From the NCBI GenBank assembly GCA_965226375.1, contig CBDDCX010000003.1, forward strand, positions 1 to 57,637: 57,637 bases of DNA, read 5' to 3'. Made by a program: the position numbers and the translations under genes. Shown one piece after another: positions 16,273-51,036 of this stretch (the first letter of the stretch is position 1; the number at the start of each line of letters is the position of its first letter). The notes beneath the pieces are model-generated. The model was not told where the DNA came from. It saw only the letters and a list, made by a program, of their open reading frames with translations, and did no database searches. Source of the stretch: Longimicrobiales bacterium. Its GTDB lineage: Bacteria > Gemmatimonadota > Gemmatimonadetes > Longimicrobiales > Gaopeijiaceae.

Positions 16273-16543
16273 TTCTCGCCGCGTAAAGTCGACGGCTACT
16301 CCCGGCCTTTCACTTTTTTACGCTTCCTCCATTGTGCTGCTGGCGCAAAGGGACACGTGGAAGAGACGGCTGGCCCCGCTTGCGGGAGTGGGGCGTATGG
16401 CGCTGAGCAACTACGGCAAGCTCCAACCCATGCGCCTGTATAGCTGAGGTCCTTGCCTCGGGGTGCATGCCGTCTATCATCAGGGCTTGAAGAAATGGAG
16501 CTTGATTCCCCGGCCCAAACCTTGATGCTCGAGGAGACCTGAG

Positions 16544-18529
16544 ATGAAGAAGAGCGACCGTGAGCTGGGCATGGACCGGGAGATCAACCGTCGCGACTTC
16601 CTGAACGGAGCGAGCATCGCGATCGCGGGAGCAGTCCTCGCGCCGGGCGCCTCGGGGGCGCAGGGGAAGGAAGCCTCACCGGCTCCGGCCGCGTCTCCAT
16701 TCATCGAAGGTTCTCCGAGCCAGGAGACGTACTATCCGCCGACACGCACGGGGATGCGGGGCAGCCATCCGGGCTCGTTCGAGGTGGCTCATGAGATGCG
16801 GTTCGGCAAGACGTGGGACGATGCGCAGGAGACGGGGGAGGCGTACGACCTGATCGTGGTGGGTGGTGGGCTGAGTGGTCTCGGGGCGGCCTACTACTTT
16901 CGGAAGGCGATGCCCGAGGCTCGCGTCCTGGTCCTGGACAACCACGACGACTTCGGAGGGCATGCCAAGCGGAACGAGCACGTGGTCGACGGGCGCCAGA
17001 TCATCGGCTACGGGGGCACGACGTACATCACGGGAGCCTATACGTACGAAGGCCTGGAGTTGCTCCACGACATCGGTCTCGACGCGGAGGAGTACAAGCG
17101 TGCGAACGTGGGAAGCCGCTTCCGAGCGAGAGAGCTGGGTTTAGGGAACGGGGTCTTCTTCGACGAGGAGACGTTCGGTGTGGATCGACTGGTGGTAGGA
17201 ACACCCCGATCGGACGAGTCCGAGTCGTGGACGCAGTGGCTTCGGAAGACGCCGCTCTCGGAGAGGGTGCGCAGTGATATCGCGAAGCTGTACCAGACGC
17301 AGGAGGATTACTTCCCCGGATTGTCGGTGGAGGAGAAGATCGCCCGGCTCCGGAAGATGAGCTATCAGGACTATCTGCTGAACGTCGTCGGCGTCCACCC
17401 GGACGTGATCCCCTTCTTCAAGCGCCGCGCCCCGGATGCCAATGGGTCGGCCGGCATCGATACGTTGAGCGGATGGGCTGCGTTCCGCTACAGCAGTTTA
17501 CCCGGGCTGCAGGGCCTCGGGCTCGGGGAGCCGCCGCCGAGAGACGGGTTCCCCGGGCTGGAGAATCCGTTCGACGGCCTGCACTTTCCGGACGGAAATG
17601 CTGGCATTGCGCGGCTGCTCGTGCGCTGGCTGATTCCCGATTCACTACCGGGCCACACGATGAACGATTCGGTGCCGGCGCGGGTCCGGTATTCGACCCT
17701 CGACCGGGCAGCAAACGACGTGAACATCCGCCTCAACAGCACGGTCGTGAGCGCTCGCCACGTGGGCGAGCGGGGACAGGCGAACGAGGTGGAGGTCACG
17801 TACGTACGGGACGGTCAGGCGCATCGCGTGCGAGGAGGCACCTGCGTGATGGCGTGCTACAACTCGGTGATTCCGTATCTGTGTCCCGACCTGCCGGAGG
17901 ACCAGAAGGAGCACCTGCACATGGCGGTGCGCAGACCCTTCGTTGCGACCAACGTCGTGATTCGCGACTGGCAAGCGTTCGAGCGGCTCGGTGTGGCGCG
18001 CATCCATTGCCCGGGCTTTTACTTCGAAAGTGTTGGTCTCGACGGTTACAGCAACAGCTTCGGGGAATACCAGACCAGCCAGTCACCCGACGAACCGGTC
18101 GTCGTGACGCTCTGGGCATCTCCGATCGCTCCGGGCCTTCCCGTGCGGGATCAGTGGCGGGCAGCACGGGAGGAGCTCCTGACCATGACGTTCGAGACGT
18201 TCGAGCGCAACATCAGGGATCAGATGGCTCGTGCCCTGGGGGAGGGAGGCTTCGATCCGGCCCGGGACATCGAGGCCATCTTCGTCAATCGCTGGCCCCA
18301 CGGGTACGCGGGCGCGGGCAACGACCTCTACGACCCCGACTGGGGGTACGACGAGGCTCCCTGGGTGTTGGGCCGCAAGCGGTTCGGGCGCATCGCCATC
18401 GCGAACTCCGACGCGGCCGCGACGTGCCTGACGCAGGCCGCCTTCGACCAGGCGCACCGTGCGGTCCAGGAGCTGATCACCGACGTCATCCGGCCCGAGT
18501 TCCAATATCCCTGGGCCGAGCGAACCTAA
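16544..18529 (+). CDS. Tat-exported FAD oxidoreductase, spermidine dehydrogenase (SpdH)-like
   Basis: NRRDFLNG Tat motif, YYPP..TGMRGSHPGSFEVAH, GGGLSG, DNHDDFGGHAKRNE, HFPDGNAGIAR and NRWPHGY motifs. Confidence 0.88.
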   Translation: MKKSDRELGMDREINRRDFLNGASIAIAGAVLAPGASGAQGKEASPAPAASPFIEGSPSQETYYPPTRTGMRGSHPGSFEVAHEMRFGKTWDDAQETGEAYDLIVVGGGLSGLGAAYYFRKAMPEARVLVLDNHDDFGGHAKRNEHVVDGRQIIGYGGTTYITGAYTYEGLELLHDIGLDAEEYKRANVGSRFRARELGLGNGVFFDEETFGVDRLVVGTPRSDESESWTQWLRKTPLSERVRSDIAKLYQTQEDYFPGLSVEEKIARLRKMSYQDYLLNVVGVHPDVIPFFKRRAPDANGSAGIDTLSGWAAFRYSSLPGLQGLGLGEPPPRDGFPGLENPFDGLHFPDGNAGIARLLVRWLIPDSLPGHTMNDSVPARVRYSTLDRAANDVNIRLNSTVVSARHVGERGQANEVEVTYVRDGQAHRVRGGTCVMACYNSVIPYLCPDLPEDQKEHLHMAVRRPFVATNVVIRDWQAFERLGVARIHCPGFYFESVGLDGYSNSFGEYQTSQSPDEPVVVTLWASPIAPGLPVRDQWRAAREELLTMTFETFERNIRDQMARALGEGGFDPARDIEAIFVNRWPHGYAGAGNDLYDPDWGYDEAPWVLGRKRFGRIAIANSDAAATCLTQAAFDQAHRAVQELITDVIRPEFQYPWAERT

Positions 18530-20201: not shown

Positions 20202-20963
20202 TCAGCCGGCGACGCCACCACCGTCCACGACCAGAGAATCGCCGGTGACGAACGAAGCTTCGTCGGAAGCGAGGAAGACCACCGCGTCCGCTATCTCGTC
20301 AGCGGTGCCGATGCGGCCCAGCGGCCGGTCCGAAAACTCGGCGAGATACTCCTCCCACGGCATACCACGCTTGGCGGCGTCGTCGGGGAGCATCGGGGTA
20401 TCGACGTCGCCAGGACACACGCAGTTGACGCGAATGCCGTCGGGACCGTGGTCGATTGCCATCGCCTTGGCCATGATGACCAGGCCTCCCTTCGCAGCGC
20501 AGTACGCCGCCGCCTTGTCGCCTCCGAGGATGCCCCAGCCGGAGCTGGTGTGGATGATCGAACCGCCACCGTTCTCGATCATCGACGGGATGGCGTACTT
20601 CGACATGAGAAAGGCCCCTTTCAGGCTCGAGTCGATCGTCTCGTCCCACTCCTCCTCGGTGCACTCCGGCACGGTCTTCGGGTGAAACACCCCGGCGTTG
20701 TTGAACAGGATGTCGATTCGACCGAAGCGCTCCAGCGTCTGCTCGACCGCCTGTCTACAGTCCTCCGCGATGCGCACGTCCGAGCGAATGAACATCGCCT
20801 CGCCGCCCGCGTCGACAATCGACTGTGCGACGGCTTCGCCTCGCTCCGCGTTGCGTCCCGTCAGTGCCACGGATGCCCCCTCGCGCGCGAAGCGCACTGC
20901 CGTGGCGCTTCCGATGCCCGAGGTGCCGCCGGTGATCAAACCCACTTTGCCGTCCAATCTCAT
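20202..20963 (-). CDS. Short-chain dehydrogenase/reductase
   Basis: TGGTSGIG, NNAG and YCAAK motifs. Confidence 0.95.
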   Translation of the reverse strand: MRLDGKVGLITGGTSGIGSATAVRFAREGASVALTGRNAERGEAVAQSIVDAGGEAMFIRSDVRIAEDCRQAVEQTLERFGRIDILFNNAGVFHPKTVPECTEEEWDETIDSSLKGAFLMSKYAIPSMIENGGGSIIHTSSGWGILGGDKAAAYCAAKGGLVIMAKAMAIDHGPDGIRVNCVCPGDVDTPMLPDDAAKRGMPWEEYLAEFSDRPLGRIGTADEIADAVVFLASDEASFVTGDSLVVDGGGVAG

Positions 20964-21214
20964 GCGCGATTCCCCTTCTTGGTTAGCGGCTGCTCCGGCG
21001 TCCCGACCGGAACCGGTCCGCGTCTATTTATGCGTCATGGCGTCAGTGTACTCGGCCCGCTGCATCGGCGCCACGGGGAAGACCCCCCGGAGCGATCATA
21101 CAGACCTACTGGAGCGTTTTCTCGGCCGGTTCGAGAAGTACGTGAAGGAGGGACAGCCCGGTTCATGACGCCCCGGCGACCATCGCTTGGGCGACTCGCG
21201 TACGAACGAAGCTC

Positions 21215-22645: not shown

Positions 22646-22656
22646 GAAACGGGAGC

Positions 22657-23415
22657 TCAACGGCCAGCGGTCACGCCACCATCAATCGCTAGCGCGGCAC
22701 CCGTGACGTAACCCGCTTCGGATGAAGCCAGATAGAGGACCGCCTGACTGATCTCGGCTGGCGTTGCGATGCGCTTCATCGGCGCGTAGTCGATCATCGT
22801 CTGCTCGGCCGCGGCCGGGTCTTCCTTCTTGTCGATGTTGTCGCGGCGGATCATGTCGGTATCGACATAGCCCGGGCATACGCAATTGACCCGTACGTCT
22901 GGCGCGATCTCCAACGCCATGGCACGGGTCATGTTGACGACCCCTGCCTTCGCCGCGCAGTACACGGCGATCCCTGCAAACCCCATCAGCCCGGCATCCG
23001 AGGCGATGTTGACGATGTTGCCGTTGGACTTGCGCAATTCAGGCAATGCCGCGCGGTAGCAGAAGAAAGTGCCCTTCAGGTTGACGTCGAGTTGAGCGTC
23101 CCACATCGCCTCGTCGCTGTCCTCGATGGGTCTAGCCGACACGATACCGGCGCTGTTCACCAGAATATCGAGCCCGCCCAAGGCGTCGTACGCAGTGCCC
23201 ACTACCGACTCGCAGCCAGGAACGGTTCCGATATCGCCGGGCGCTGCGGCCAGGGGCGCACCATCGCCCAGTCTCTCCCTGGCGGCGCTCACGGAGTGCA
23301 TTGTTCTGCCGTTGATGGCGACGCGGGCGCCAGCGTCGACAAAGGCCTTGGTAATCGCAAAGCCGATGCCCCGACTGCTACCCGTTACCAAGACTCGCTT
23401 GTCGGTGAAATCCAT
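22657..23415 (-). CDS. Short-chain dehydrogenase/reductase
   Basis: TGSSRGIG, NSAG and YCAAK motifs. Confidence 0.95.
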   Translation of the reverse strand: MDFTDKRVLVTGSSRGIGFAITKAFVDAGARVAINGRTMHSVSAARERLGDGAPLAAAPGDIGTVPGCESVVGTAYDALGGLDILVNSAGIVSARPIEDSDEAMWDAQLDVNLKGTFFCYRAALPELRKSNGNIVNIASDAGLMGFAGIAVYCAAKAGVVNMTRAMALEIAPDVRVNCVCPGYVDTDMIRRDNIDKKEDPAAAEQTMIDYAPMKRIATPAEISQAVLYLASSEAGYVTGAALAIDGGVTAGR

Positions 23416-23474
23416 GTCGATTCCTCTGGAGGTTATCGAGATACGCGTCCGATCGTGACCGGTGGCTCAGTCCC

Positions 23475-23813
23475 GCGCGGCGCGCGGGTAGCCCTGCGCA
23501 CTCGAACGGTGATCGTGGTGGCTCGTCGCGCGGACGACGAAAGCACTGCACCGACCCTCCGCAAGGGAGTCGAGGACACGCTATTCACGTCGGCCGAACA
23601 GAACCAAATAGCCTCATGACTGTTGCCTTGCCAAGGAGGCGATTCGATGCGACCGTGGATCCGTCCGATCACCTTGATCGGAGCCGCAGCGTGCACCGAA
23701 GAGACTCCGCCCAGGCTCTGCGGGGAATGGAGCCGATGTCAGCGACGCGGACTGAGGGAGTAACGGTGGGATTCGTTCTCAAGACGGGAGAGGGTGAACC
23801 GCTGCTGAGCGGC
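23475..23813 (+). repeat. Diverged direct repeat, copy 1 (upstream region plus truncated cupin 5' end)
   Basis: Colinear with 28606-28943; homology stops abruptly after ...CCGCTGCTGAGCGGC. Confidence 0.93.
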
Positions 23814-28605: not shown

Positions 28606-28943
28606 GCGCGGCGTGCGGGTAGTCCTGCGCTCTCGAACGGTGATCGTGGTGGCTCGTGGTGCTGATGAAGAAAGCAGTGAACCGACCGTCCGCAAGGGAG
28701 TCGGAGACGCGCTATTCACGTCGGCCGAACACAACCAGACAGCCTCGTGATTGTTGCCTTGCCAAGGAGGCGATTCGATGCGACCGTGGATCCGTCCGAT
28801 CACCTTGATCGAGCTGCAGCGTGCACCGAAGAGACTCCGCCCAGGCTCTGCGGGAGATGAAGCCGATGTCAGCGAGGCGGACTGAGGGAGTAACGGTGGG
28901 ATTCGTACTCAAGACGGGAGAGGGTGAACCGCTGCTGAGCGGC
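28606..28943 (+). repeat. Diverged direct repeat, copy 2
   Basis: Colinear with 23475-23813 and continues into the cupin gene. Confidence 0.93.
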
Positions 28944-29339
28944 ATTGTCGTCAAAGCATCGCCGAAGACCGGGACGTTGGGCCCTTTTCTGGTTGAACAG
29001 ACATTCCAGCGGGGATTTACAACGAATCTTCACACTCACGAACAGGGCGACGAGTTGTTCTATGTCGTGTCAGGTCGGGGCACCGCGACGCTGGAGGACG
29101 AGACCGAAGCGATTGAGCCTGGTGACGTGTTCTTTGTGCCACAGAGCGCAGTTCACCGCATCGCGAACCTGGACGATGACGAGCCCCTAAAGGTCGTCTA
29201 TTTCATGGACAGTCCGGAATTGGTCGAGCAATTTCGGGCGCTTCACGAGCGCGCTACATCGGAGCCGGATCGACCGATTACGCCGGAAGAGAGGGCCGCG
29301 ATTGAAGAGCGAACTGGCGGTTCTACGGCGGTGCGATGA
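28821..29339 (+). CDS. Cupin-domain protein (start uncertain)
   Basis: HTHEQGDELFYVVSG...PGDVFFVPQSAVH cupin motifs. The AAGGAGG-ATG at 28778 is out of frame, so the leader may be frameshifted. Confidence 0.85.
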   Translation: MHRRDSAQALREMKPMSARRTEGVTVGFVLKTGEGEPLLSGIVVKASPKTGTLGPFLVEQTFQRGFTTNLHTHEQGDELFYVVSGRGTATLEDETEAIEPGDVFFVPQSAVHRIANLDDDEPLKVVYFMDSPELVEQFRALHERATSEPDRPITPEERAAIEERTGGSTAVR

Positions 29340-29373
29340 ATCCTTTGGCCATGTTTAACGCATCACCACCTGG

Positions 29374-32031
29374 GTGCGAAACGCTGAACCATTCCGACGG
29401 AGGTTTACCTTGATCGAAAGTCCCTGGCTGGACGCCCGAAGCATCGCATCCCTGCTTGTCGTGCTCATGAGCGCCACGGCGCCCGCCATCGCCCACGAGC
29501 CCGGCGGCCAAGTCGCTACTTCCGAGTCGCCTCCGTCAATCGAGGAGACGGTGGCCGGCATGGAAAAGCTCGATGGCCTCTTCCCACTCTATTGGGATGC
29601 GGCCGCCGGTACGCTCTACATGGAGATCGACAGGTTCGACGAGGATGTCCTCTACGTCCGCGGGCTGGCGGCGGGACTGGGCTCCAACGACATCGGGCTT
29701 GATCGAGGACAGGGCCGCGGCAGCGGCGATCTCGTAAGGTTCGAGCGCGTCGGCCCGAAGATCCTGATGCTGCAGCCGAACCTGAGGTACCGGGCCGACA
29801 GCGAAAACCCCGATGAGCGTGTGGCGGTCGAGGACGCGTTCGCGCAGTCGGTGCTTTGGGGCTTCACAGTCGCCGCCGCGACCGATGGCCGCACATTGGT
29901 CGACATGACCGAGTTTCTGGTGCGCGACACCCACGATGTCGCGACTACTCTGCAGCCGGCCCAGTATCGCCTCGACAGCTCGCGCAGCGTCATCTCGAGG
30001 CAACACACCAAGGCCTTCCCGAGGAACATCATCCTGAACGCTGTCCTCACCTTCACAACGCAGGGCGATGGAAGCGGAGGTGACGGGTTTGGGATGCAAC
30101 CCGGGCCGGGCGGCGGTTTCGGGCGCGGGGCGCTATCTGCGGTGGCCCCGAGCACCGAGGCGGTCACCGTTCGCACGCATCACCAGTTCGTGGAGTTGCC
30201 CGGCGGTGGCTACGAGCCACGTACCTTCGACCCGCGATCCGGCGCCTTCGGCCCTACGTACCAGGACTATGCGGTGCCGCTCGGCACATCGCTGACGAAG
30301 CGGCTCGTCAACCGACACCGGCTGCAGAAAGTCGACCCGACCGCCGAAGTCTCGGACGCCGTCGAGCCTATCGTTTACTACCTGGACCGCGGCACCCCCG
30401 AGCCCGTTCGCTCGGCGCTCCTCGATGGAGCACGCTGGTGGAACCAAGCGTTCGAGGCGGCCGGCTATCGCGATGCCTTCCAGGTGAGGATGCTGCCCGA
30501 GGGCGCCGACCCCATGGACGTGCGCTACAACATCATTCAGTGGGTGCATCGCTCGACGCGCGGCTGGAGCTACGGCTTCACGGTCAGCGACCCGCGCACC
30601 GGTGAGATCATCAAGGGTCGCGTCACGCTCGGGTCGCTGCGTGTGCGGCAGGATTACTTGATCGCGGAGGGCTTGTTGGCGCCATACGCGAACGGCACCG
30701 AGACCCCTCCCGAGTTGGCTGAATGGGCGCTGGCACGGCTGCGGCAGCTGTCGGCGCACGAGGTTGGCCATACCCTCGGCTTCAACCACAATCACTACGC
30801 CAGCAGCCTCGGGCGCATCTCGGTGATGGACTACCCGCATCCGCTGGTCGAGCTCACCGACGACCGCGAGTTCGACTACTCGGCGGTCTACGACGACAAG
30901 ATCGGCGAATGGGACAAAGTTGCGGTGATGTACTCCTACCAGGATTTCCGACCCGGGGCCGATGAGGCAGAGGAGCTTCGCGCCATCATCGATGAGGCCT
31001 GGGAGCGCGACGTCATTCATATGACCGATGAGTCCTTGTCGGCGCAGCCGCGCGTGCACCTATGGGCCAACGGCACTGATCCGGCCGCCGAGCTCAGCCG
31101 AATGATGAACGTTCGCCGGCGCGCTCTCGATCGCTTCGGAGACAACGCCATCAAGCTCGGGGCGCCGCTGGCGACGATCGAAGAAGCGCTGGTGCCGCTG
31201 TACATGCGTCATCGCTATCAAGTAGAAGCGACCGCCTCCGCCATCGGCGGCACGTACTCCCACTACGCGCTGCGCGGTGACGGCCACGGGAATGCCGCCG
31301 GTGCGGTGCCGCGCGGCGAGCAGATGGCGGCGCTGGAGGCCTTACTGGCCACGTTGCAACCGTCTGAGCTTACGGTGCCGCGCTCGGTCCTGGCACAGTT
31401 ACCACCGCGACCGTCGGGCTACGGGCACCACCGCGAGCTGTTTCCGCGCTACACCGGGATGACGTTCGACGCGATTACGCCGGCCGTGGTCGCCACGCAA
31501 CACGTCGTATCCAACATCTTCGACCCCGAGCGTGCCGCCCGCGTGGTGCAGCAGCACGCCCTCGACAGCTCGTTGCCCGGCCTGGACGAGGTGCTCGACG
31601 GCACCTTCCAGGCGGTGTTCGCCACAAGTGGCGGCGACGACTACGAGCAGGAGATCGCGCGCGCCGTGCAACGCACGCTCGTCGAGCAGCTGATGTCGGT
31701 GGCGGCGAACGCCACCATGCCGCAGGTGCGTGCGATCGTCACCGCCAGGCTCGACCGGATGACCAACCGAATCGGCGGGATGCTGGCAGATGCCGGGGAT
31801 CCGCTCGGACCCACACAGGCTCACCTGGCGCTGTTGAAGCGCGACGTGGGGCGCTTTCTGCAGCGCCCGGCCGATGCCTACGCGGCTCCGAGGCCGCAGG
31901 CGCCGCCGCCGGGCGCGCCGATCGGACAGATCGGCCCCTCATGGCTCGACAGCAACCTCATGGGCATCGATCTGCCGCCGGTCGGCTCGATGCTCGACCT
32001 TTTGCTACCCGCCGACGCGCATCATCGGTGA
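29374..32031 (+). CDS. Zinc-dependent metalloprotease (DUF5117/DUF4953 metzincin type)
   Basis: AHEVGHTLGFNH zinc motif, SVMDY Met-turn, DPRTGEIIKG; start uncertain. Confidence 0.92.
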   Translation: MRNAEPFRRRFTLIESPWLDARSIASLLVVLMSATAPAIAHEPGGQVATSESPPSIEETVAGMEKLDGLFPLYWDAAAGTLYMEIDRFDEDVLYVRGLAAGLGSNDIGLDRGQGRGSGDLVRFERVGPKILMLQPNLRYRADSENPDERVAVEDAFAQSVLWGFTVAAATDGRTLVDMTEFLVRDTHDVATTLQPAQYRLDSSRSVISRQHTKAFPRNIILNAVLTFTTQGDGSGGDGFGMQPGPGGGFGRGALSAVAPSTEAVTVRTHHQFVELPGGGYEPRTFDPRSGAFGPTYQDYAVPLGTSLTKRLVNRHRLQKVDPTAEVSDAVEPIVYYLDRGTPEPVRSALLDGARWWNQAFEAAGYRDAFQVRMLPEGADPMDVRYNIIQWVHRSTRGWSYGFTVSDPRTGEIIKGRVTLGSLRVRQDYLIAEGLLAPYANGTETPPELAEWALARLRQLSAHEVGHTLGFNHNHYASSLGRISVMDYPHPLVELTDDREFDYSAVYDDKIGEWDKVAVMYSYQDFRPGADEAEELRAIIDEAWERDVIHMTDESLSAQPRVHLWANGTDPAAELSRMMNVRRRALDRFGDNAIKLGAPLATIEEALVPLYMRHRYQVEATASAIGGTYSHYALRGDGHGNAAGAVPRGEQMAALEALLATLQPSELTVPRSVLAQLPPRPSGYGHHRELFPRYTGMTFDAITPAVVATQHVVSNIFDPERAARVVQQHALDSSLPGLDEVLDGTFQAVFATSGGDDYEQEIARAVQRTLVEQLMSVAANATMPQVRAIVTARLDRMTNRIGGMLADAGDPLGPTQAHLALLKRDVGRFLQRPADAYAAPRPQAPPPGAPIGQIGPSWLDSNLMGIDLPPVGSMLDLLLPADAHHR

Positions 32032-33535: not shown

Positions 33536-33753
33536 CTGAGGCGCTTCCCCCCTGCTGCTGCCGGATTGGCCTGCGGTCGCCTTCGGCGATCCTCGGTCGT
33601 CTCACGGAAATCTTGAGGATCTATCGAGGACTCGACTGACGCTCGGGTAGATCCTGGCCGGCTCACACGCCTTACACGCATGTTGTCGAGATCATGGCGA
33701 GCCCGAGTGAAGGTCCCCTCATCCGCTTCGCCCGCGAAATCCAGGTGCAGCTC

Positions 33754-35431
33754 ATGAGGTTCCGGCATCTCGGCTTGTGGGGCATGTGCTTGGCTCTGGA
33801 TGCCTGCCAATCGGGACCCGATATTTGGGCCGATCTCGTGGTCCTGAACGGGAACGTGATCACGGTCGACCGCGCCCGTCCGAGAGCCGAGGCGTTCGCG
33901 GTTCTCGGAGCCAAGTTCATCGCCGTGGGGTCAACGTCGGAGATGCGCCGCTGGATAGGTGAATCTACGACGGTGATCGATGCGGAAGGACGCACCATCA
34001 CTCCCGGTTTCATCGATGCGCACATGCATCCTCGGCCCACGTATCCGGAGTCGTCTCCCCTCGCTACGGTGGACCTTCGCCCGGTCAGCGTCGCTTCGAT
34101 GGCCGATGTGATCGATGCGCTAGCGGCCAAGGCAGCGCTGGTTCCTGAGGGCCAGTGGATTCGGGGCGTCCGTTACGAGGACACGAAGCTCGGCCGACAT
34201 CCCACCCGAGCGGATCTGGACCAGGCCTCCAGCAGACACCCCATCTATATCACGCACTCGAGTGGTCACCTCGGGGTTGCGAACTCCTTCGTACTCAGGG
34301 CTGCCGGGATCACCCGGGACACGCCGGACCCTCCCGGAGGAGCATTCGATCGAGGGGACGATGGAGTGCCGAACGGCGTCTGTCGTGAGGTCGCCTGCCG
34401 CGCTTTCCGCCAGGCGGTGCCCGAGACTCCGATCACGAGGCAGGACGAAGTGGAGGGGATCCAGCGGACGCTCCGGCAGTTCGCGAAGACCGGGATCACG
34501 ACGGTCGTCGACGCGGGTGGGAGCCCTGAGAAACTTGGACAGTTCCGGGCGGGGGTGGGTTCGGGACCGTTCGCGCGGTCATGATGGTCGGCAGTGCCTA
34601 CCTGGATGAATTCCGGGCGGGAGGACTCGGCACGGGCTTCGGGGACTCATGGGTCAAGGTCGGACCCATCAAGGCGTTCCACGGCAACTCTCTGTCAGGC
34701 AGGACCGCCTGGCTTTTCGAGCCCTACGACATGGTCAATCCCGCCACGGGCAAGCGCGACTACTACGGGATTCCGCCCGATCGGACGCAGAGCGAGCTGG
34801 ACTCCCTGATCTTCTCGATTCACGAGGCGGGATTCCAGGTAGGTGTGCACTCGAACGGTGACCGCGAGATCACGATGCTTCTCGAGGCGTTCGAGAAGGC
34901 CCTCACCAGGCTACCCAGACCGGACCACAGGCACCGAATCGAGCATTCCAGCGTGATGACTCCCGCCATACTCCAGAAAGTCAGGGAGCTCGAGCTCGTC
35001 CTCGCTCCCCACTCCTACGTCTACGAGCACGGCGACAAGATGGAAGCGTTCGGTGCCAACCGCTGGGGAATGATGCACCCCAACCGGACGGCGCTCGACA
35101 TGGGCATCCCGGTAGCCGGCAATTCGGACTACGGCGTCAGCGCTGCGATTCCCATGCTTCGCATTCAGAGCATGGTGACGCGCACGAGTGCGGAAGGGAA
35201 GGTCTACGGCCCCGAGCAGAGGATATCGCCCGAAGAGGCGATCCAGATTTGGACGATGGGAAGCGCCTTTTCGGTGTTCGAGGAAGACATCAAGGGATCG
35301 ATCGAGGTAGGCAAGTTGGCCGACTTCGCCATCCTGTCGGCAGACCCGACCGCGGTACCCGTCGACGAGATCAAGGACATTGTGGTCCACACACGACCGT
35401 CGTCGGTGGCCGGATCGTGTACGACCGCTGA
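33754..35431 (+). pseudogene. Amidohydrolase-3 (YtcJ-like), two frameshifts
   Basis: PGFIDAHMH, VHSNGD, RHRIEH and GSIEVGKLADF motifs. Frame breaks near 34560 and at CACACAC 35388-35394; the true C-terminus TTVVGGRIVYDR ends at 35431. Confidence 0.88.
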
Positions 35432-35546
35432 AGCCGTCGACGCCAATTTCGCCTGGCTCCAGCAGTCGGACCTACCCAAGATCCTTTTTCATCCTCACGA
35501 AATCGGCGAGGGAATCGCGAAGTGGTACCGTCGATTTCAAGGCTGA
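35432..35546 (+). pseudogene. Haloalkane-dehalogenase-like C-terminal remnant with internal deletion
   Basis: AWLQQSDLPKILF directly joined to PHEIGEGIAKW; both resemble separate C-terminal motifs of LinB/DhaA-type enzymes. Confidence 0.55.
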
Positions 35547-37717: not shown

Positions 37718-37821
37718 GATCGGGATCAGAATCGGCTGGCTCTCGGAGGCAAGGATTTGCAGTGTCGACCGCGGACGAGGGCACGTGCGCCGTCATCGGC
37801 AATCCTAGCTCGTCTCGCGGA

Positions 37822-37909
37822 GAGCTGCCGGGGTTCAACAGCGGGAATAACGGCGGGTACAGCGGGAAAAAGAGCGGGAATCTCTACTCTCAAACCCACC
37901 CGTGCCCCC
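37822..37909 (+). repeat. 88-bp dispersed repeat, copy A (four GCGGGA-type boxes)
   Basis: Near-identical to 50153-50240; boxes start at 37841, 37853, 37862 and 37874. Confidence 0.93.
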
Positions 37910-38008
37910 CAAGAGACTCCGTATGGGTGTGATACCCTCACGCGAGTGTTTTTGGGGTTGGATTTAGTGATCAGTGAACATTGTTTGGGTGATGGCGCTT
38001 AGGGCGTG

Positions 38009-38201
38009 TGCCATCTATCATCAGAGCTTGAAGAAACGGAGTTGGATTCCGGGGCCTACACCTTGATCCTCGAGGAGACCTGAGAATGAAGAAGAGCGAC
38101 CGCGAACCGGCCATGGACCGGAAGATCAACCGCCGTGACTTCCTGAACGGAGCGAGCATCGCAATGGCGGGAACGGTTCTCGCGCCGGGGGCCTCGGGCG
38201 C
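38009..38201 (+). repeat. Copy of the SpdH-like promoter, RBS and Tat-leader module (16468-16659)
   Basis: Colinear DNA from TGCC(A/G)TCTATCAT through the signal peptide; 34 of the first 39 aa identical. Confidence 0.93.
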
Positions 38202-39369
38202 TAGCACCGCTCGGATGATACCAAGTCCTCCACCCATAGATGAACCTGTGCCAACAGGGGGTACCGGCCATTACCTGTATGTAGCGACTCCTGGTATCAT
38301 CGATCATTTGGGCTATGGGGGTCACGGATTGCTGGTTTTTGATATAGACAACAATCACAAATTCGTAAAACGAATTAGCACTAGGGGGTTCCATGAAGAT
38401 GGCAGCCCATCAAACGTCAAGGGCATTGATGTCAGTGTGCCGCTCAACAGTGTCTATATCACCACCTTGGAATCTATGCAGCGGATAGATCTGAGTACGG
38501 AAGAGGTGCTGTGGGAAATCGATTTTGAGGGTGGCTGTGACCGTATGTCGATTTCACCTGATGGGATGACCATGTATTTGCCATCATTAGAAAAAGAGTT
38601 TTGGAATGTCGTGAATACCGAAACCGGTGATATCATTGCCAAGATCGTAGTAGATACCAGTGCACACAACACGATTTACGGTCCTTCAGGAAATCGAGCA
38701 TATATGGCGGATTATAAATCTCCCTGGTTGCACGTTGCAGATACCAAAACGCACACAGTCGTACAGAAAATAGGCCCTTTTAGTGGAGCTGTTCGACCGT
38801 TTACCATGAAGAGCGACGAGTCGCTTGTGTTTGTGAACGTTGATGATTTGCTGGGATTTGAAGTGGGTGATTTGAAAACAGGAGAAAAGGTAGCGAGTGT
38901 TCGGGTCCAGGGTTGGGACAGAGGTCCCGTACAACGACATGGCAATCCAAGTCATGGTATAGCTTTGACCCCAGATGAAAAAGAGATATGGATTAGCGAT
39001 GGCCATAATATGCGAATGCATGTTTTTAGCGCAGAAGCCCCTTATCAACAGCTCACCACCATTGCACTACGTGATATGCCGGGTTGGGTCACTTTTAGTA
39101 TAGATGGTCAGTATGCCTATGCATCTAGTGGCGAAGTGATTGATGCCAAGACACGGAGAATTTTATACTTGTTGCAGGATGAAAATTACAATACCGTTTG
39201 CAGCGAAAAGATGATTGAGATGCATATGCAAGACGGCAAAGTAACCAAGGCAGGTGACCAATTTGGCTTGGGTAGATTGCCTGTAGCAGGAGATATAGGT
39301 TTGGTTAGAAATTCGGGCATCCGTCTCAACCGCTACATGCCAGCAATTCAGCCCCGCCCAAGGCCGTAA
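38086..39369 (+). CDS. YncE/YVTN-like beta-propeller protein with borrowed Tat leader; AT-rich body
   Basis: GCDRMSISPDG, AHNTIYG, VRPFT and SHGIALTPDEKEIW motifs; abrupt codon and GC shift after about 38215. Confidence 0.85.
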   Translation: MKKSDREPAMDRKINRRDFLNGASIAMAGTVLAPGASGASTARMIPSPPPIDEPVPTGGTGHYLYVATPGIIDHLGYGGHGLLVFDIDNNHKFVKRISTRGFHEDGSPSNVKGIDVSVPLNSVYITTLESMQRIDLSTEEVLWEIDFEGGCDRMSISPDGMTMYLPSLEKEFWNVVNTETGDIIAKIVVDTSAHNTIYGPSGNRAYMADYKSPWLHVADTKTHTVVQKIGPFSGAVRPFTMKSDESLVFVNVDDLLGFEVGDLKTGEKVASVRVQGWDRGPVQRHGNPSHGIALTPDEKEIWISDGHNMRMHVFSAEAPYQQLTTIALRDMPGWVTFSIDGQYAYASSGEVIDAKTRRILYLLQDENYNTVCSEKMIEMHMQDGKVTKAGDQFGLGRLPVAGDIGLVRNSGIRLNRYMPAIQPRPRP

Positions 39370-39417
39370 CCTCAAGCGGGGCAATCCCTTACGTGCCCCA
39401 TAATACGTTGAGCGGAT
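39319..39417 (+). other. attC-like imperfect palindrome
   Basis: ATCCG(T)CTCAAC...GTTGAGCGGAT outer arms (GTTRRRY at 39407-39413) and an inner GCCCCGC/GCGGGGC stem. Confidence 0.5.
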
Positions 39418-39451
39418 CGACACGTTGGTCCAACGGCATCAGGGAGCCCAC

Positions 39452-41521
39452 ATGACCCACCGCCTTCTCAGAAGGAATCTCCTGCCCGTAGCCATCGTGA
39501 CGGCGCTCCTCCTGGCCGATTGCCAGCCTGTTCAGGGAAACGTGGTGAGCGTGATCGTGGATCGGCGCGTGGACATCCTGGGCGGACGAGCCTTCGGACA
39601 AGCGGGGGCTTACGAGATGCTCGTGGGCCGGATCCTCTTCGCCTTCGAGCCCGCCAATCCGCAGAATCGAGCCATCGTCGATCTGGAGCTGGCGCCTCGG
39701 AACGCCGACGGTCTCGTGGAGGCGTGGGCGGATTTTCGCGCGTTCCAGCCGAAAGACCCGGCCCGGAGGCGAGGCATTGGCTTGGTGGAGGTCAGCAACC
39801 GGGGACGACTGGCCGCCTTCCAGTACCTCAACCTAGCAGATACGCGCGAGCCCGACCCATGGGCCCCCGAACACTTCGGCGACGGCTTGCTGATGGACCT
39901 CGGGCTCACGATCGTGATCATTGGATGGCAGTACGACATCCCCGAGGAGGGGCACGCTCTTGGACTGCGTGCTCCTTTCGCCCGGGAGGGTGCGGAGGCG
40001 GTCCGGGGCTTGGCACGCTCGGACTGGACGCTGGATCGGAGTGAAGACGTCCTGCTGCTCGGGCACATGAACCGCCCCGGGGCCTATCCTCCGGTCGCGC
40101 CCGGCAGAGCCGACGACGTTCTGACCGTCAGGGAAAGCCGGGAGGGCGCCCGGCAGGTCCTCCCCCGACAGAGCTGGGAGTTCATTCGTCTCCCGAGCCA
40201 GGAGAAGCTCGGTGCGATTCGGCTGGAGGGTGGTTTCCAGGCGGGGAAGATCTACGAGCTGGTGTACGAGGCGCAGGACCCACACGTCGTGGGCGTGGGT
40301 CTCGCGGCGGTGCGAGATGTCATCTCCTACGCGAAGTACGATCCGGAGGCGCTCTTTCCCGTCGAACGCGGAATCGCATTCGGCTTCTCCCAGACGGGGA
40401 GGTTCCTGAGGCACTTCCTGTACCAGGGGTTGAACACGGACGAACGTGGCCGGAAGGCCTACGACGGGATGCTCATCCAGGTCGCCGGAGCCGGCCGTGG
40501 TAGCTTCAACCATCGCTTCGCGCAGCCTTCCAGGGATGGACATCCCTACTCGGCGTTTTTCTATCCAAGCGACGTGTTCCCCTTCACGAGCCTGGATCAG
40601 GAGGATCCGCTCGATGGTTCGCGGGGTGGGCTGCTGAGCCAGCAGAGGGATGACCATGTGCCCCTGATCTTCCAGACCAACGCCGACTACGAGTACTGGG
40701 GGCGCGCCGCGTCCCTGATCCACACCTCCGCGGATGGCGCGCGGGATGTGCCCTTGCATCCGAACGAGCGGATCTATCTGCTCGCCGGTGGGCAGCACAT
40801 GATCACCTGGCTCGAACCATCCCACGAGTACCGAATCGCGAACACGCCCGCGTACCGCGGGAACCCGGTGGACTTCCGACTCACCCTCCGAGCCTTGACG
40901 CAGCGGTTGGTGGAGTGGGTGGACCGGGGTGTCGATCCGCCCCCGAGCACGTATCCTCACGTCGCCGATGGAACGCTCGTGCATCCCCCAGAGCTGGCCT
41001 TCCCGCCGATCCCCGGCGTGCGGGGACCGGGCGGCACGCCGCATGTGGCGTACCGTACGGATTACGGGCCACGGTTCGAGTCGGAAGGTGTGGTCACGAA
41101 TCAGCCGCCGGAGCTCGGTCCCTCGTTTCCGTCCCTGGTACCGCAGGTCGACGAGTTGGGCAACACCCAGGGCGGTATCCGCCCCTACGAGCTTCGTGCG
41201 CCGCTCGCCACCTACACGCCGTGGCTTCTCCGCGGGGGTCCGTGGAATCAGGGACCTGGCGAGCCCCAAGTCCTCGACAACTACATCGGGAGTTACATCC
41301 CGCTCCCCCGCACGGAGGCGGCGCGGCGTGCGACCGGCGACCCACGGCCTTCCCTGGAGGCGCTCTACGATTCGGCGGCCGAGTTCCTGGCAAGAGTCAG
41401 AGAAGCGGCCGAGGACCTCGTGGACGAGGGATTCTTGCTTCGGAGGGACGTCGATGTCGTGGAGGCCCGCGCCACGACCCACTGGAACTGGGTGATGGGA
41501 GTCGAGCTCGGTTCTCGGTGA
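39452..41521 (+). CDS. Secreted alpha/beta-hydrolase-domain protein
   Basis: EVSNRG, GFSQTGRFLR nucleophile elbow, RFAQPSR, EYWGRAASL and GGQH motifs. Confidence 0.88.
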   Translation: MTHRLLRRNLLPVAIVTALLLADCQPVQGNVVSVIVDRRVDILGGRAFGQAGAYEMLVGRILFAFEPANPQNRAIVDLELAPRNADGLVEAWADFRAFQPKDPARRRGIGLVEVSNRGRLAAFQYLNLADTREPDPWAPEHFGDGLLMDLGLTIVIIGWQYDIPEEGHALGLRAPFAREGAEAVRGLARSDWTLDRSEDVLLLGHMNRPGAYPPVAPGRADDVLTVRESREGARQVLPRQSWEFIRLPSQEKLGAIRLEGGFQAGKIYELVYEAQDPHVVGVGLAAVRDVISYAKYDPEALFPVERGIAFGFSQTGRFLRHFLYQGLNTDERGRKAYDGMLIQVAGAGRGSFNHRFAQPSRDGHPYSAFFYPSDVFPFTSLDQEDPLDGSRGGLLSQQRDDHVPLIFQTNADYEYWGRAASLIHTSADGARDVPLHPNERIYLLAGGQHMITWLEPSHEYRIANTPAYRGNPVDFRLTLRALTQRLVEWVDRGVDPPPSTYPHVADGTLVHPPELAFPPIPGVRGPGGTPHVAYRTDYGPRFESEGVVTNQPPELGPSFPSLVPQVDELGNTQGGIRPYELRAPLATYTPWLLRGGPWNQGPGEPQVLDNYIGSYIPLPRTEAARRATGDPRPSLEALYDSAAEFLARVREAAEDLVDEGFLLRRDVDVVEARATTHWNWVMGVELGSR

Positions 41522-41831
41522 CCTGGATCTCTCGGTAGAGGGACGAAGCTGGCTCTTGCGGCGGAGGGTGGCGCCTTTCCGGAGGCCGACCGGCTGACCT
41601 GCACACTTCCCGGAAGTCCGTGTAGGTCCTCACTTCATAGATGTCTCGAAGCATGCGGTTGAACCCCGCCACATCCGTCCCAAGCCGCCTCCAAGATCCA
41701 ATTGGGTGTCATGTATCACCTACCACGAGCACTATCGGCGCGGCCATGGAGGGCGACGTTGATGGTCGCAGTTGGCGTGCTCGAGGCATGTACTCGTGCG
41801 ACCTACCGGGAAGCCGATTAGGTTGCCGCTC

Positions 41832-48282: not shown

Positions 48283-48328
48283 AAGTTCGTCTCTGCCGAT
48301 GCCGTTCTCGTCTGCCTGGGCGTCTGAC

Positions 48329-48369
48329 GGGCCTCTGCTTGCGCCCACTGCCCTACTCTCGGATGTTGA
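48329..48369 (+). repeat. 41-bp dispersed repeat (second copy 50758-50798)
   Basis: 33 of 41 positions identical without gaps by manual alignment; both end in CGGATGTTGA. Confidence 0.8.
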
Positions 48370-48450
48370 CCTCGGTCTGATCCCGGAGTCCGCTCCGTGC
48401 TCGCGAAGGTGCCGGTCCCGGCTTATCGTCTTTTCGAACCGGGAGGTGAG

Positions 48451-49986
48451 ATGTCCATGCGAGAGCCGTTCGTCATCGTCCTGCTTCTCACCTTCGGGGC
48501 CGCCAGTGAGGGTCGGGCGCAGATCACCGATCCGATCCCGGCGCGGATCGAGAAGCGCGGCCTCATGGTCGAGATCCGGGATGTCGCCCGTCTACCGATG
48601 ACTCGCGGGATGCGTCCCCCCGATCAGGACGTGAACCCGGCGGGTTGGGCGCGCGTGAGCTTCGTGCGCGAGCTTTCGGACGGTCGCCGTTTTGCCAACG
48701 ACTCACGGGGCTTCTTGTACCTGCTCGAGGGCGGCGACCGACCTACCCTCTACCTGGACTTCGTAGCCGCCTTCCCGTTGGCGATCTACAGCCGGCTGGA
48801 GAGCGGCTTCATCGGATTCGACTTCCACCCGGAATTCGCTCGCAACGGACTCTTCTACACCGTCCACGGCGAGTATGCGGCGGGCAACCCCGCCATTCCC
48901 GACTTCATCCCGCCGGGCTTCACGCCGGCCGACGTCATCCACCACAACGTCATCACCGAGTGGCGCGCGACGAACCCGGGCGCAAGCCGGTTCGAGGGCA
49001 CCCGGCGCGAGCTGCTCCGTGTGGCCCACGTCGTCGCGAACCTGACCCACCCGTTCGGTTACGTGGGGTTCGACCCGACCGCGCGCCCCGGCGAGCCGGA
49101 CTACGGCCTGCTGTACACGAGCGGCAGCGACCTGGGGTTCAGTAACGGCGGCGGGCCAAACGCGAACAATCCGAGCCAGGTCCAGCGTCTGGACACCGTC
49201 GTCGGCGCGATCCTGCGCATCGATCCGCGCACTCCTGCGGAGTCGGGCGGCACGAAGGGGCTCGGCGACTACACGATCCCCGCAATCAACCCGTTCGCCT
49301 CCGACGGCGACCCGAGCACGCTCGGCGAGATCTACGCGTACGGGTTCCGTAACGCCCACAGGCTCTCTTGGGACCCGACGGACCGGACGATGTTCGCGTC
49401 GGACATCGGCATGAACAACATCGAGGAAATCAACATCGTGCGCGCAGGCCAGAACTACGGCTGGATGCGCCGCGAAGGGTACTTCGAGAACGGCGTGACC
49501 CGCCCCGGTGGTGCGCTGCGGGAGCTGTTCCCCCTGCCTGCTGATGTCCTCGACGGGCGGACGGAGGACGAGTTCACCTATCCGGTGGCGATGTTCGACC
49601 ACAACGACGGCCAGGTCGTGTCCGGAGGATTCGCCTATTACGGTCGGATCGAAGCGCTCCGGGACAAGTTCGTGTTCGGCGACCTCGTGCGCGGCCGGAT
49701 CTTCGCCGTCGATCTCGCCGCGATGAAGGCGGCCGATGACGGCATTCCGCGCACGGTGGCGCCCATCGAAGAGATCCAGCTCTACGTGCGTAACTCGAGC
49801 GGCGACCGCGTCTACGTGTCGTTCCGGGAGCTGGTCGAAGCGGCGAACGGCGCCACCGCCTCACGCGCCGACATGCACATCACCATCAGCGGCGACGGCG
49901 AACTCTTCATCACGTCCCGGCAGGACGGCATGATCCGCATGCTCGTCCCGGACTCGGGTATGGAGGCGGCAAACGGGGAAAGGTGA
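48451..49986 (+). CDS. PQQ-dependent sugar dehydrogenase / GSDH-type beta-propeller
   Basis: FHPEFARNG, GAILRIDP, EIYAYGFRNAHR, EEINIV and GQNYGW motifs; signal peptide. Confidence 0.85.
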   Translation: MSMREPFVIVLLLTFGAASEGRAQITDPIPARIEKRGLMVEIRDVARLPMTRGMRPPDQDVNPAGWARVSFVRELSDGRRFANDSRGFLYLLEGGDRPTLYLDFVAAFPLAIYSRLESGFIGFDFHPEFARNGLFYTVHGEYAAGNPAIPDFIPPGFTPADVIHHNVITEWRATNPGASRFEGTRRELLRVAHVVANLTHPFGYVGFDPTARPGEPDYGLLYTSGSDLGFSNGGGPNANNPSQVQRLDTVVGAILRIDPRTPAESGGTKGLGDYTIPAINPFASDGDPSTLGEIYAYGFRNAHRLSWDPTDRTMFASDIGMNNIEEINIVRAGQNYGWMRREGYFENGVTRPGGALRELFPLPADVLDGRTEDEFTYPVAMFDHNDGQVVSGGFAYYGRIEALRDKFVFGDLVRGRIFAVDLAAMKAADDGIPRTVAPIEEIQLYVRNSSGDRVYVSFRELVEAANGATASRADMHITISGDGELFITSRQDGMIRMLVPDSGMEAANGER

Positions 49987-50152: not shown

Positions 50153-50240
50153 GAGCTGCCGGGGTTCAACAGCGGGAATAACGGCGGGAACAGCGGGAAG
50201 AAGAGCGGGAGTCTCTACTCTGAACCCACCCGCTGCCCCC
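50153..50240 (+). repeat. 88-bp dispersed repeat, copy B
   Basis: GCGGGA at 50172, 50184, 50193 and 50205; same 12/9/12 spacing as copy A. Confidence 0.93.
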
Positions 50241-50329
50241 ATCTAGACTCGCACGATTGCTTGCAGCCACACACGCCCTAAGCACATCTTTGTTGAGCAT
50301 ATACGCCGTGACGAAGGGGCATCGCATCA

Positions 50330-50746
50330 ATGCAGAACTCTGAATGGCCCACGTGGAAATGCGCCTTATTCACTGGTTCGATCTGCGCCATACCGCTCTC
50401 CCTTCTTATTGTGGCATACCCGGCCGTTGGATTTTCAATGTTGGCGATTCTCATCTTGTTATATGTGGGATTGGTCAAGCTGTTCGGTACGGGTTTTGTG
50501 GTCGAAGGGGGGTGTATCGTAATCATTCCGGCGGTACTCATTTCCACGATAAGCCCAGCGTTCTTCGCTTCGCTATATGGTACCCCTGAGGGCGTTATTC
50601 CTGACCCGAATCCGGTCTCTCTCGTTGTGCTGGCCGCCTTGGTCGTCGTCTTTGTATGGTTTGGTCTCTCAGTCGTGCGCGACGTTCGCAACGATAGTCG
50701 GCTCAGGCGGCTCTACGAAGAGGCCGAAAAACCCGAAGACGCTTAG
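50330..50746 (+). CDS. Small hypothetical membrane protein, AT-richer than its neighbours
   Basis: About four hydrophobic segments and a charged tail; no family recognised. Confidence 0.6.
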   Translation: MQNSEWPTWKCALFTGSICAIPLSLLIVAYPAVGFSMLAILILLYVGLVKLFGTGFVVEGGCIVIIPAVLISTISPAFFASLYGTPEGVIPDPNPVSLVVLAALVVVFVWFGLSVVRDVRNDSRLRRLYEEAEKPEDA

Positions 50747-51036
50747 AACGCGATTCTGGGCTTCTGCTTGTGCCTACCGGTCCACTCACGGATGTTGAGC
50801 GCAGTCTGCGTGGGGCCATCATGTTCCGAAGCCGATCAGCACGGACATGAAGCGGTCACGACCCCTGAACCGGGCAGAAACGGGCTGGCGGGTGGATGGC
50901 CCCGCGTATAAGTTGTGTTTGTCGGGCCAGGTCCTCGGATCGGGGAGTTGGCGGCGGCTCTAGTTCCGCCAACGGCGACACGTTCGTAAGACCCGGACCA
51001 CCGGGAAGAGGGTTACAAAGCCTTTACAGGAGCCGG

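Follow-up and report, generated by a model that had tools for sequence, protein, structure and literature searches.

An open reading frame (ORF) on the forward strand of contig CBDDCX010000003.1 (contig C3 of genome G000, which comprises 4.23 Mb in 8 contigs; all 57,637 nt of the contig were analyzed and are referred to here as the window) was found to be a chimeric gene, in which a leader of the type carried by a family of flavoproteins with a twin-arginine translocation (Tat) signal is joined to a beta-propeller body of the type encoded by Bacteroidota. The ORF spans positions 38086-39369 and encodes 427 amino acids without interruption by a stop codon, with the product beginning MKKSDREPAMDRKINRRDFLNGASIAMAGTVLAPGASGA/STARMIPSPPPIDEPVPTGGTGHYLYV, where the slash marks the point of fusion. 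It is highly probable that the chimera arose as a one-off event, in which a Bacteroidota propeller gene acquired the front of a flavoprotein gene, and that it later spread laterally. From the comparisons presented below, we infer both the selective reason for the fusion, namely, the gain of expression signals, and the place where the fusion occurred.

A repeat search of the window paired positions 38002-38085, immediately upstream of the start codon, with positions 16461-16544, and codons 1-39 (38086-38201) with positions 16544-16659 of a flavoprotein gene, at 85% identity over 84 nt and 88% nucleotide identity, respectively. Taken together as a 200-nt front (84 nt upstream and codons 1-39; 38002-38201), this sequence matched the flavoprotein paralogue with a BLAST E value of 6e-62. 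When the whole of G000 was searched with the same front, nothing besides the paralogue exceeded 76% identity over 50 nt, with a weak 50-nt match falling on a third flavoprotein paralogue. Alignments of chimera and flavoprotein fronts showed that the front also aligns in the copies found in other genomes. At the protein level, the chimera and flavoprotein leaders differ at 5 of 39 residues. The shared stretch includes a -10-like TATCAT (38016-38021) and a Shine-Dalgarno sequence, GAGGAG (38072-38077), located 8 nt 5' of the ATG at 38086. As such, the observations of the first-pass annotation of this DNA, namely, a match of some 190 bp to the front of an 'SpdH-like' gene that comprises this -10 sequence, this ribosome-binding site and a leader with 34 of 39 residues identical, were confirmed.

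The similarity to the paralogue stops at position 38201, within the GCT codon of Ala39, such that the pairwise alignment ends GGC GC/T AGC. A CTAG, earlier reported at the end of the similarity, is indeed found there (38201-38204). In all four genomic copies of the chimera, introduced below, the junction reads GC-TAGCACCGCT, with flavoprotein genes instead going on GCGCAGGG. The same A-S-T-A join was seen in 12 of 12 metagenome copies of the propeller. Composition changes at the same point. In 200-nt windows, GC content drops from 0.60-0.62 to 0.45-0.49 near 38200 and rises again after 39300, and GC content at third codon positions (GC3) is 0.82 in leader codons 1-39, 0.44 in body codons 40-403 (overall GC 0.47) and 0.71-0.82 in four neighboring genes. 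The GC and codon scan that had been proposed as a check hence places the break where the similarity ends, at about 38200, and the earlier description of an unrelated, AT-richer propeller that follows in frame and without stops was accurate.

The consensus of Tat signals, found at the border of the n- and h-regions, reads (S/T)-R-R-x-F-L-K. The chimera contains N-R-R-D-F-L-N at residues 15-21, in agreement with this consensus, followed by a weakly hydrophobic h-region, GASIAMAGTVLAPGA, and by ASGA and ASTA (residues 36-42), which conform to the A-x-A pattern. When residues 1-60 were compared with TIGR01409 (TAT_signal_seq; curated cut-off, 16.7 bits), a score of 20.8 bits was obtained, with the flavoprotein scoring 22.7 bits. 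Moreover, TatC (PF00902; 209.8 bits) is encoded in G000 (C8:803449-804084). Export of the chimera product via Tat is predicted from these features. Cleavage had been assigned to ASGA, and the coincidence of this motif with the end of the similarity held; the signal-peptidase site may, however, be the ASTA (residues 39-42) contributed by the imported gene.

The gene at 16544, termed 'SpdH-like' in the first-pass annotation, yielded only generic Pfam matches (NAD_binding_8, 3.5e-11; DAO; FAD_binding_2), which lend this name no specific support, and the Atlas clusters for its product carry the names 'NAD(P)/FAD-dependent oxidoreductase' and 'Twin-arginine translocation pathway signal'. In each of two metagenome-assembled genomes (MAGs), G061 and G063, some 35 paralogues align with the flavoprotein from residue 1-5, and the leader is native to this family. 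These Tat-signal NAD(P)/FAD oxidoreductase paralogues are often clustered and, as compared with the two to three found in G000, represent a large lineage-specific expansion.

For its part, the body is 85.5% identical at the nucleotide level to a gene in a Flammeovirgaceae MAG (L027), with similarity extending from 38204 onward. The family is very large and highly conserved, with 6,548 homologues at E <= 0.001 among 8,000 candidates scored; source names for relatives include 'YncE family protein' and 'DNA-binding beta-propeller fold protein YncE'. Among the best 80 genome loci, 77 lack the Tat leader, with the match beginning at residues ~39-63. According to their labels, nearly all are from Bacteroidota (Cyclobacteriaceae, Flammeovirgaceae, Dyadobacter, Chitinophagaceae and others), with about eight Verrucomicrobiota, one Williamsia and one 'uncultured bacterium' also being found among the 80. 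The leaderless homologues begin with signals of the general secretory (Sec) type (...LLI(A/S)(S/G)TAW-I(I/V)P), and the DNA upstream of these is AT-rich and without Shine-Dalgarno sequences. The search for a donor taxon and a native N-terminus suggested earlier was thus productive on both counts. The graft thus swapped the n- and h-regions of the imported Sec signal and left the ASTA c-region in place, with an Ala codon (GCN) in both parents probably offering 2-3 nt of microhomology.

In structural terms, an AlphaFold2 (AF2) model of the chimera (overall predicted local distance difference test score 78, mostly 85-97 over residues 61-390) contains 28 strands, with a confident propeller lying between disordered residues 1-55 and 398-427. 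The top Foldseek match was 1l0q, a YVTN propeller (E 1.3e-15; TMq 0.59), and all of the top matches were seven-bladed propellers of a generic kind that bring no functional assignment. A phmmer search of solved structures also retrieved 1l0q (3.1e-16). Judging from the strands of the model and these structural matches, the modeled body is in line with a seven-bladed fold of the YVTN/NHL type.

How often such a fusion occurred was addressed by considering the distribution of the leader. A Tat leader is present on 7 of 121 proteins, namely, that of the window, P0001-P0005 and P0007. In a tree of the mature parts, the Tat-bearing rows (7 of 113) form one clade (Shimodaira-Hasegawa-like approximate likelihood ratio test support 100) nested among Sec-type rows, with the Sec-type P0006 as sister (89). 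This points strongly to a single origin of the chimera.

Three MAGs labelled Acidobacteriota, i.e., G061, G062 and G063, carry the chimera (loci L024, L025 and L026, respectively). Window positions 37939-39278 match G061 at 95% nucleotide identity, 38040-39291 match G062 at 91% and 37961-39300 match G063 at 88%. The flanks of the chimera are unrelated across copies, with the 3' flanks of all four being unrelated to one another. The segment just upstream of the shared front, at 37939-38001, gave no match near the flavoprotein genes of G000, G061 or G063, and metagenome contigs from three runs begin at 37937-37939. The rpoB gene of G000 shows only patchy matches of 68-78% to those of G061-G063. 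At the same time, the chimera was detected in neither of two same-genus genomes and in none of 313 same-family genomes; a sample of 400 genomes from the phylum contained no close copy, with the family being represented in only three, at 46-49% identity. Because the unit is 88-95% identical at the nucleotide level but rpoB only 68-78%, and because the chimera is absent from the relatives searched, these comparisons argue firmly that the finished chimera, some 1.35 kb long, spread laterally among distant Acidobacteriota. In all of the MAG copies, the body remains low in GC (0.46-0.50) within flanks of 0.63, except in L025, a short contig that is low in GC throughout. Close homologues carrying the leader together with host-like GC had been named in advance as speaking against a graft; such homologues do carry the leader, yet their bodies do not have host-like GC.

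Whether the fusion took place in the lineage of G000 itself deserves the most careful consideration of the alternatives. The chimera fronts of all four genomes resemble the window-type flavoprotein front (NGAS...PGASGA), including positions -84 to -31, and the fronts of the flavoprotein orthologues of G061 and G063 (SGTS...PGDVGA) match chimera fronts only from -31. Given this resemblance, the fusion would have used a window-type allele. Moreover, the distance between the chimera and the flavoprotein orthologue is 7.5 kb in G061, 10 kb in G063 and 21.5 kb in G000. One could accordingly imagine that the graft was made in the lineage of this genome by local duplication, with its own flavoprotein gene, 21.5 kb away, as donor and the other Acidobacteriota as recipients. 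Such proximity is, however, compatible with either local duplication or co-transfer, and no remnant of the flavoprotein 3' end was found downstream of the chimera. Several observations argue against a graft made in this lineage. Like the chimera, the flavoprotein gene is missing from the two same-genus genomes. Its closest matches come from G061 and G063 (84-87% amino acid and 87-89% nucleotide identity), and nothing above 54% was found in 30 relatives of G000, such that the gene was itself not vertically inherited. The window from 28 to 48 kb has no counterpart in the same-genus genomes, and no 'empty site' was found there. The rest of the contig, apart from the last 260 nt, gave matches of only 64-82% in 12 relatives, and contig C3 as a whole is best described as an accessory region. 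In addition, among the chimera leaders, that of the window has diverged furthest from the window flavoprotein leader, differing at 5 residues, as compared with 0-3 in P0001, L139 and L147, and the window-type flavoprotein allele is also present in another metagenome (L149). An origin in this lineage is, as such, considered unlikely, albeit the most credible of the alternatives, and the window copy was more probably acquired as a finished chimera than assembled in situ. The earlier proposal that a foreign gene had been given an expression and export module is retained, therefore, but not the notions that the module was that of the host or that the gene was domesticated here, given the same junction in three distant MAGs and 12 metagenome contigs and the accessory nature of the region.

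A second alternative, also raised in the first-pass annotation, holds that an upstream element of 88 bp (98 nt as delineated here) and a downstream attC-like site belong to a recurrent and undescribed process of gene capture through leader swapping. The contig indeed has a mosaic make-up, with single-gene blocks sharing 87-98% identity with scattered genes in G061 and G063, G000 encodes an integron-type integrase (C4:70278-71219) that scores above the TIGR02249 cut-off (308.6 versus 265 bits), and both copies of the 98-nt element precede stretches of lower GC. The leader, however, does not behave as a module that is shared among genes. A search of G000 for the leader on other, unrelated genes returned two copies only, on the flavoprotein and the chimera, and all DNA matches to the leader in G061 and G063 coincide with a flavoprotein paralogue or the chimera. 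When metagenome contigs were scanned with a 26-nt leader pattern, the leader ran into the propeller in 12 of the 13 contigs retrieved, into the window-type flavoprotein body in one and into a third gene in none. The single clade and single junction described above also speak against recurrence. As to the 98-nt element, both copies (87-93% identity) are on this contig, with none elsewhere in G000. The chimera copies in L024, L025 and L026 are not preceded by the element, and its range has no match in G061 or G063 at E <= 1e-10. It folds no better than shuffled sequences, and an Rfam scan of the whole window at gathering thresholds gave no matches, the shared 5' untranslated region (UTR) and the 98-nt element included. 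An attC site is an imperfect palindrome of 57-141 nt with R''/L''...L'/R' boxes, of the form RYYYAAC...GTTRRRY. The region at 39285-39400 was considered as a candidate and rejected, since its hairpin is only 32 nt long, lacks R and L boxes (no RYYYAAC...GTTRRRY pair in attC order) and folds like shuffled sequences (z -0.5 and -1.1). Nor is the setting that of an integron array, as the sole integron-type integrase over the cut-off in G000 is on C4 and not on the window contig, or that of a cassette with fixed edges, with the 5' limits of similarity varying by copy (37896, 37939, 37961 and 38002-38072). Recurrent capture of this kind is accordingly held to be very improbable.

It could also be envisaged that transfer proceeded in the reverse direction, with an ancestrally acidobacterial, Tat-exported propeller having been acquired by Bacteroidota, where a Sec signal was swapped in. 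Nothing specific favors this order of events beyond the fact that the tree is in principle unrooted. Against it, the Tat rows occupy a terminal position within successively nested Sec-type rows, and the family is all but missing from the sampled phylum, as noted above. The body GC3 of 0.44 is like that of Bacteroidota homologues (0.42-0.47, within 0.42-0.54 for body homologues overall) and unlike that of acidobacterial genes (0.71-0.82). Furthermore, body GC3 climbs across the acidobacterial copies (0.44, 0.46, 0.51 and 0.55), as expected of amelioration after import. A transfer from Acidobacteriota to Bacteroidota is hardly to be believed. Finally, although a sharp break in GC at a repeat shared with another gene is what would be expected had reads of two organisms been joined at ~38200 in assembly or binning, this can be dismissed, as the junction is present in three independently assembled MAGs, in 12 metagenome contigs and in contigs from three studies that bridge position 38200 by more than 50 nt on each side (X2, 37937-39379, with 1 mismatch; X5, 37937-38422; X6, 37937-38250), with X5 also holding 38422-39900, i.e., the same context downstream of the chimera. 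The junction, for which spanning reads had been called for, is not an assembly artefact.

Several points weigh against the history favored here, that of a single fusion followed by lateral spread, or against parts of it. The first concerns the promoter. In a scan for the sigma-70-type consensus, no -35/-10 pair was called for the chimera, because the shared stretch begins only 14 nt 5' of TATCAT. The same scan called TTGCCT-16-TATCAT at 16453-16480 for the 16544 gene, such that the -35 region of the flavoprotein promoter falls outside the stretch common to the chimera. Grafting of a host promoter, as had been claimed, is thus only partly shown, extending to the -10-like box but not to a complete pair. 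Transcription is not shown by RNA run X15 either, which gave two short contigs lying inside the body only (38665-38892 and 38919-39103), the missing cover of the leader being of no significance. As for export, the chimera copies in L024 and L026 read RRDLL and score 15.7 and 16.5 bits, respectively, just below the TIGR01409 cut-off. The parental junction and its 2-3 nt of microhomology are deduced from Sec-type genes that are more distant than P0006, and the taxonomy of the nearest Sec-type rows is that of MAG labels. The tree was obtained by a quick IQ-TREE search with midpoint rooting, with 8 of the 121 rows having been dropped because the anchor motif was missing. Lastly, contig C3 could be mis-binned, although the 99% match of its end to a same-genus genome speaks otherwise.

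With these points in mind, the following sequence of events can be proposed. Bacteroidota genes generally lack Shine-Dalgarno sites and rely on their own type of promoter. An AT-rich gene encoding a periplasmic seven-bladed propeller from a member of the Bacteroidota (Cytophagales-like), with a Sec signal and without a Shine-Dalgarno sequence, would have entered an acidobacterial genome, where it presumably could not be expressed from its Bacteroidota-type signals. There, in a single illegitimate recombination, everything upstream of the signal c-region would have been replaced by the front of a resident gene encoding a Tat-exported NAD(P)/FAD oxidoreductase, with the front supplying a -10-like box and GAGGAG together with a start codon and the n- and h-regions of a twin-arginine signal. 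The crossover would have fallen within an Ala codon (GC/TAGC), in frame, such that the imported ASTA cleavage motif was kept. The foreign gene may thereby have become transcribable and translatable in a phylum with other start signals, with its product reaching the periplasm, probably via Tat. The finished unit of ~1.35 kb (37939 to ~39295) would then have moved among distantly related Acidobacteriota. The features concerned are listed in Table 1.

Table 1. Coordinates of the chimeric gene, its parts and associated features in the window.
Feature	Position	Strand	Basis or remark
Paralogous front (16461-16659) on its native gene, encoding a 661-aa Tat-signal NAD(P)/FAD oxidoreductase	16461..18529	+	Pfam, TIGR01409
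98-nt element with four ~11-nt direct repeats of GCGGGAA; second copy at 50153-50250	37822..37919	.	Adjacent to the transferred unit, not part of it
Upstream segment common only to chimera copies; 5' edge of the lateral unit	37939..38001	+	Similarity to L024 from 37939, to L026 from 37961
5' UTR shared with flavoprotein front 16461-16543	38002..38085	+	TATCAT and GAGGAG; 85% identity over 84 nt
Tat leader, codons 1-39 (MKKSDREPAMDRKINRRDFLNGASIAMAGTVLAPGASGA), derived from the flavoprotein family	38086..38201	+	88% nucleotide identity, TIGR01409, GC3 0.82
Fusion junction GC/TAG(C), in or just after the Ala39 codon	38200..38204	+	Same in all copies
Imported body, residues 40-403: ASTA c-region, Pro-rich linker, predicted seven-bladed beta-propeller (~56-397)	38203..39294	+	Composition, homology, AF2
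Allele-specific read-through tail, 24 codons then TAA (39367-39369)	39295..39369	+	Extra A at 39295 destroys native TAG
GC-rich imperfect palindrome, 32 nt, around the stop codon	39351..39382	.	Folding z -0.5 and -1.1
Abhydrolase_10 gene block (gene 39425-41521), adjoining the chimera	39391..41539	+	97-98% nucleotide identity to G061/G063 genes

The 3' end of the chimera in the window is peculiar to this allele. L026 reads GGA GAT TAG, and the window reads GGA GAT A TAG; the last 24 codons (39295-39366) are read-through sequence because of this one extra A at 39295. The additional base is present in the contig of one of three DNA runs (X2) and missing from those of the other two (X5 and X6). 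The tail, of GC3 0.58, is disordered in the AF2 model. The palindrome at the stop codon probably forms a local hairpin or serves as a terminator; contig depth rises at 39351-39382 in X2 and X6, and loose ends start at 39350.

As to what the propeller might do, no conserved operon was seen around it in 76 Bacteroidota and Verrucomicrobiota loci, where the neighbors vary. Going by names read off the sequences rather than from a Pfam scan, these neighbors include malate-synthase-like (16), Tat-signal Gfo/Idh/MocA-like (13), sulfatase (10), SusC-like (10) and enolase-superfamily (10) proteins, with the Bacteroidota propeller genes often being found beside sugar-acid and oxidoreductase genes. Our guess would be a periplasmic binding or catalytic propeller tied to the use of carbohydrates or organic acids.

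Other parts of the contig were also considered. Blocks at 16513-18532, 20166-23526, 28777-32000, 37939-39290 and 39391-41539 match dispersed sites in G061 and G063 at 80-98% identity, with identity outside these mosaic blocks reaching at most 74%. No synteny is seen around the chimera in G061 and G063 beyond the flavoprotein orthologue. The Abhydrolase_10 gene, the most similar of the several single-gene lateral blocks, is sharply delimited, with the similarity extending 34 nt upstream of its start codon and 18 nt past its stop codon, and occupies unlinked sites in G061 (C8) and G063 (C33). The sequence TGCCCC(CC)A(A)TAAT, seen at the block edges in G061 and G063 as well as close to the 98-nt element, was rejected as a repeated site, since it occurs only 1-7 times in G000. 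The chimera, flavoprotein and Abhydrolase_10 units each have a short 5' region of their own and end within a few bases of the stop codon. All three share 87-98% nucleotide identity with Acidobacteriota in which rpoB is 68-78% identical, at unlinked sites with unrelated flanks. It is conceivable, if rather improbable, that such self-contained, gene-sized units reflect an undescribed exchange of single genes among marine Acidobacteriota, one that is neither a classical integron cassette nor a recognizable insertion sequence or transposon. Were this the case, chimeras with portable start and export modules would be successful forms.

Each copy of the 98-nt element is followed, 80 and 17 nt downstream, respectively, by one half of an inverted match, GCTTAGGGCGTGTG (~37999-38012) and CACACGCCCTAAGC (~50268-50281). 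Contig depth is raised over 37820-37987 in two metagenome runs. Directly after the second copy, the region at 50260-50745 is of GC 0.51-0.52 and contains a small ORF with hydrophobic segments, possibly making it another foreign insert. A ~190-nt multi-copy sequence after the G061 chimera was considered as a cassette-array repeat and rejected, as it corresponds to the conserved 5' UTR and N-terminus of an expanded set of Ser/Thr-kinase-like paralogues, with 40 matches in G000. A conserved ~70-nt upstream motif (...CTGCTTGCGCC.ACCGG.C..CTC.CGGATGTTGA...) precedes many genes (48320-48393, 50758-50808, L024:7332-7523 and 40 places in G000) and is 75-95% conserved between G000 and the distant G061. 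Most copies are followed by the N-terminus of a Ser/Thr-kinase-like family (MSDP..RL..ALEGRYAIERELGEGGMATAYLA), and those in the window precede ORFs 48397-49986 and 50896-53469. The motif may represent a promoter or leader common to a large regulon. Elsewhere, the adjacent ORFs 33694-34584 and 34581-35546 match residues 2-182 and 210-463 of the Pfam Amidohydro_3 profile, respectively, and look like one amidohydrolase gene split by a frameshift or assembly error. The last ~260 nt of the contig (57376-57637) match one place in the same-genus G001 at 99% identity and further places, in G001 as well as in C7 and C8 of G000, at 82-92%; this dispersed repeat probably caused the contig to break.

The chimera offers a clean natural record of a gene that crossed a phylum boundary between organisms with differing start signals, and of the replacement of a Sec-type export signal by one of the Tat type. 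With surviving parents, an exact join and graded copies (GC3 0.44 to 0.55), it provides a test case for the limits that expression and export impose on inter-phylum transfer. The series of copies could be used to gauge the speed at which foreign genes ameliorate, and the chimera could serve in asking whether a propeller normally exported via Sec tolerates or needs Tat. A further outcome of the analysis is an accessory region that contains several single genes shared nearly unchanged by very distant Acidobacteriota.

With respect to known systems, illegitimate and homology-facilitated illegitimate recombination take place in natural transformation, with illegitimate joins typically involving short microhomology. 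The join of the chimera, with probably only ~2-3 nt of microhomology (the GC of an Ala codon), resembles these. As a point of difference, the sequence 3' of the unit revealed neither a homologous anchor nor a flanking remnant of the flavoprotein gene. The body has its general fold in common with the seven-bladed YncE/YVTN propellers (PDB 3vgz and 1l0q), yet shares only 13-18% sequence identity with these, and scored 21.6 bits against the YncE equivalog (NCBIfam NF052280), far from the cut-off of 400. In integron cassette fusions such as gcuF1-blaOXA-28 and blaGES-1/aacA4, the translation start signals of the upstream unit are used and the signal peptide may change, with the fusions arising at attC/attI via integrase or slippage (PMC8876359). 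The likeness lies in an acquired gene being expressed through fusion from the start signals of an upstream unit; in the chimera, by contrast, no attC or attI was found, the contig encodes no integrase, the 5' region is the unit's own and the swap is in frame at the signal c-region. HGT-chimeric genes (i.e., those involving horizontal gene transfer) of arthropods join a host gene to a horizontally acquired fragment (PMC13389597). Here too, a new gene was built from a resident and an acquired part, but both partners would be bacterial, the resident contribution is limited to an expression and export module, and the chimera is itself laterally mobile. The closest described case is that of the BKC-1 carbapenemase, a laterally acquired periplasmic protein with a signal that was remodeled in a new host with the involvement of Tat; the remodeling is a duplication within the protein's own h-region, yielding a signal that works with both Sec and Tat (PMC8262980). 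In both instances, an alien periplasmic protein adapts its export signal, a process of which the authors regard BKC-1 as a snapshot. The chimera differs in having apparently taken the whole n- and h-region and the 5' UTR from an unrelated resident gene, with its export being predicted. A narrow search of the literature found, among its top-ranked entries, no natural replacement of a Sec by a Tat signal together with 5' UTR capture upon inter-phylum transfer, which does not prove novelty. The kind of event, namely, formation of a chimeric gene after horizontal transfer, is known, and the gene described here is an unusually well-documented case.

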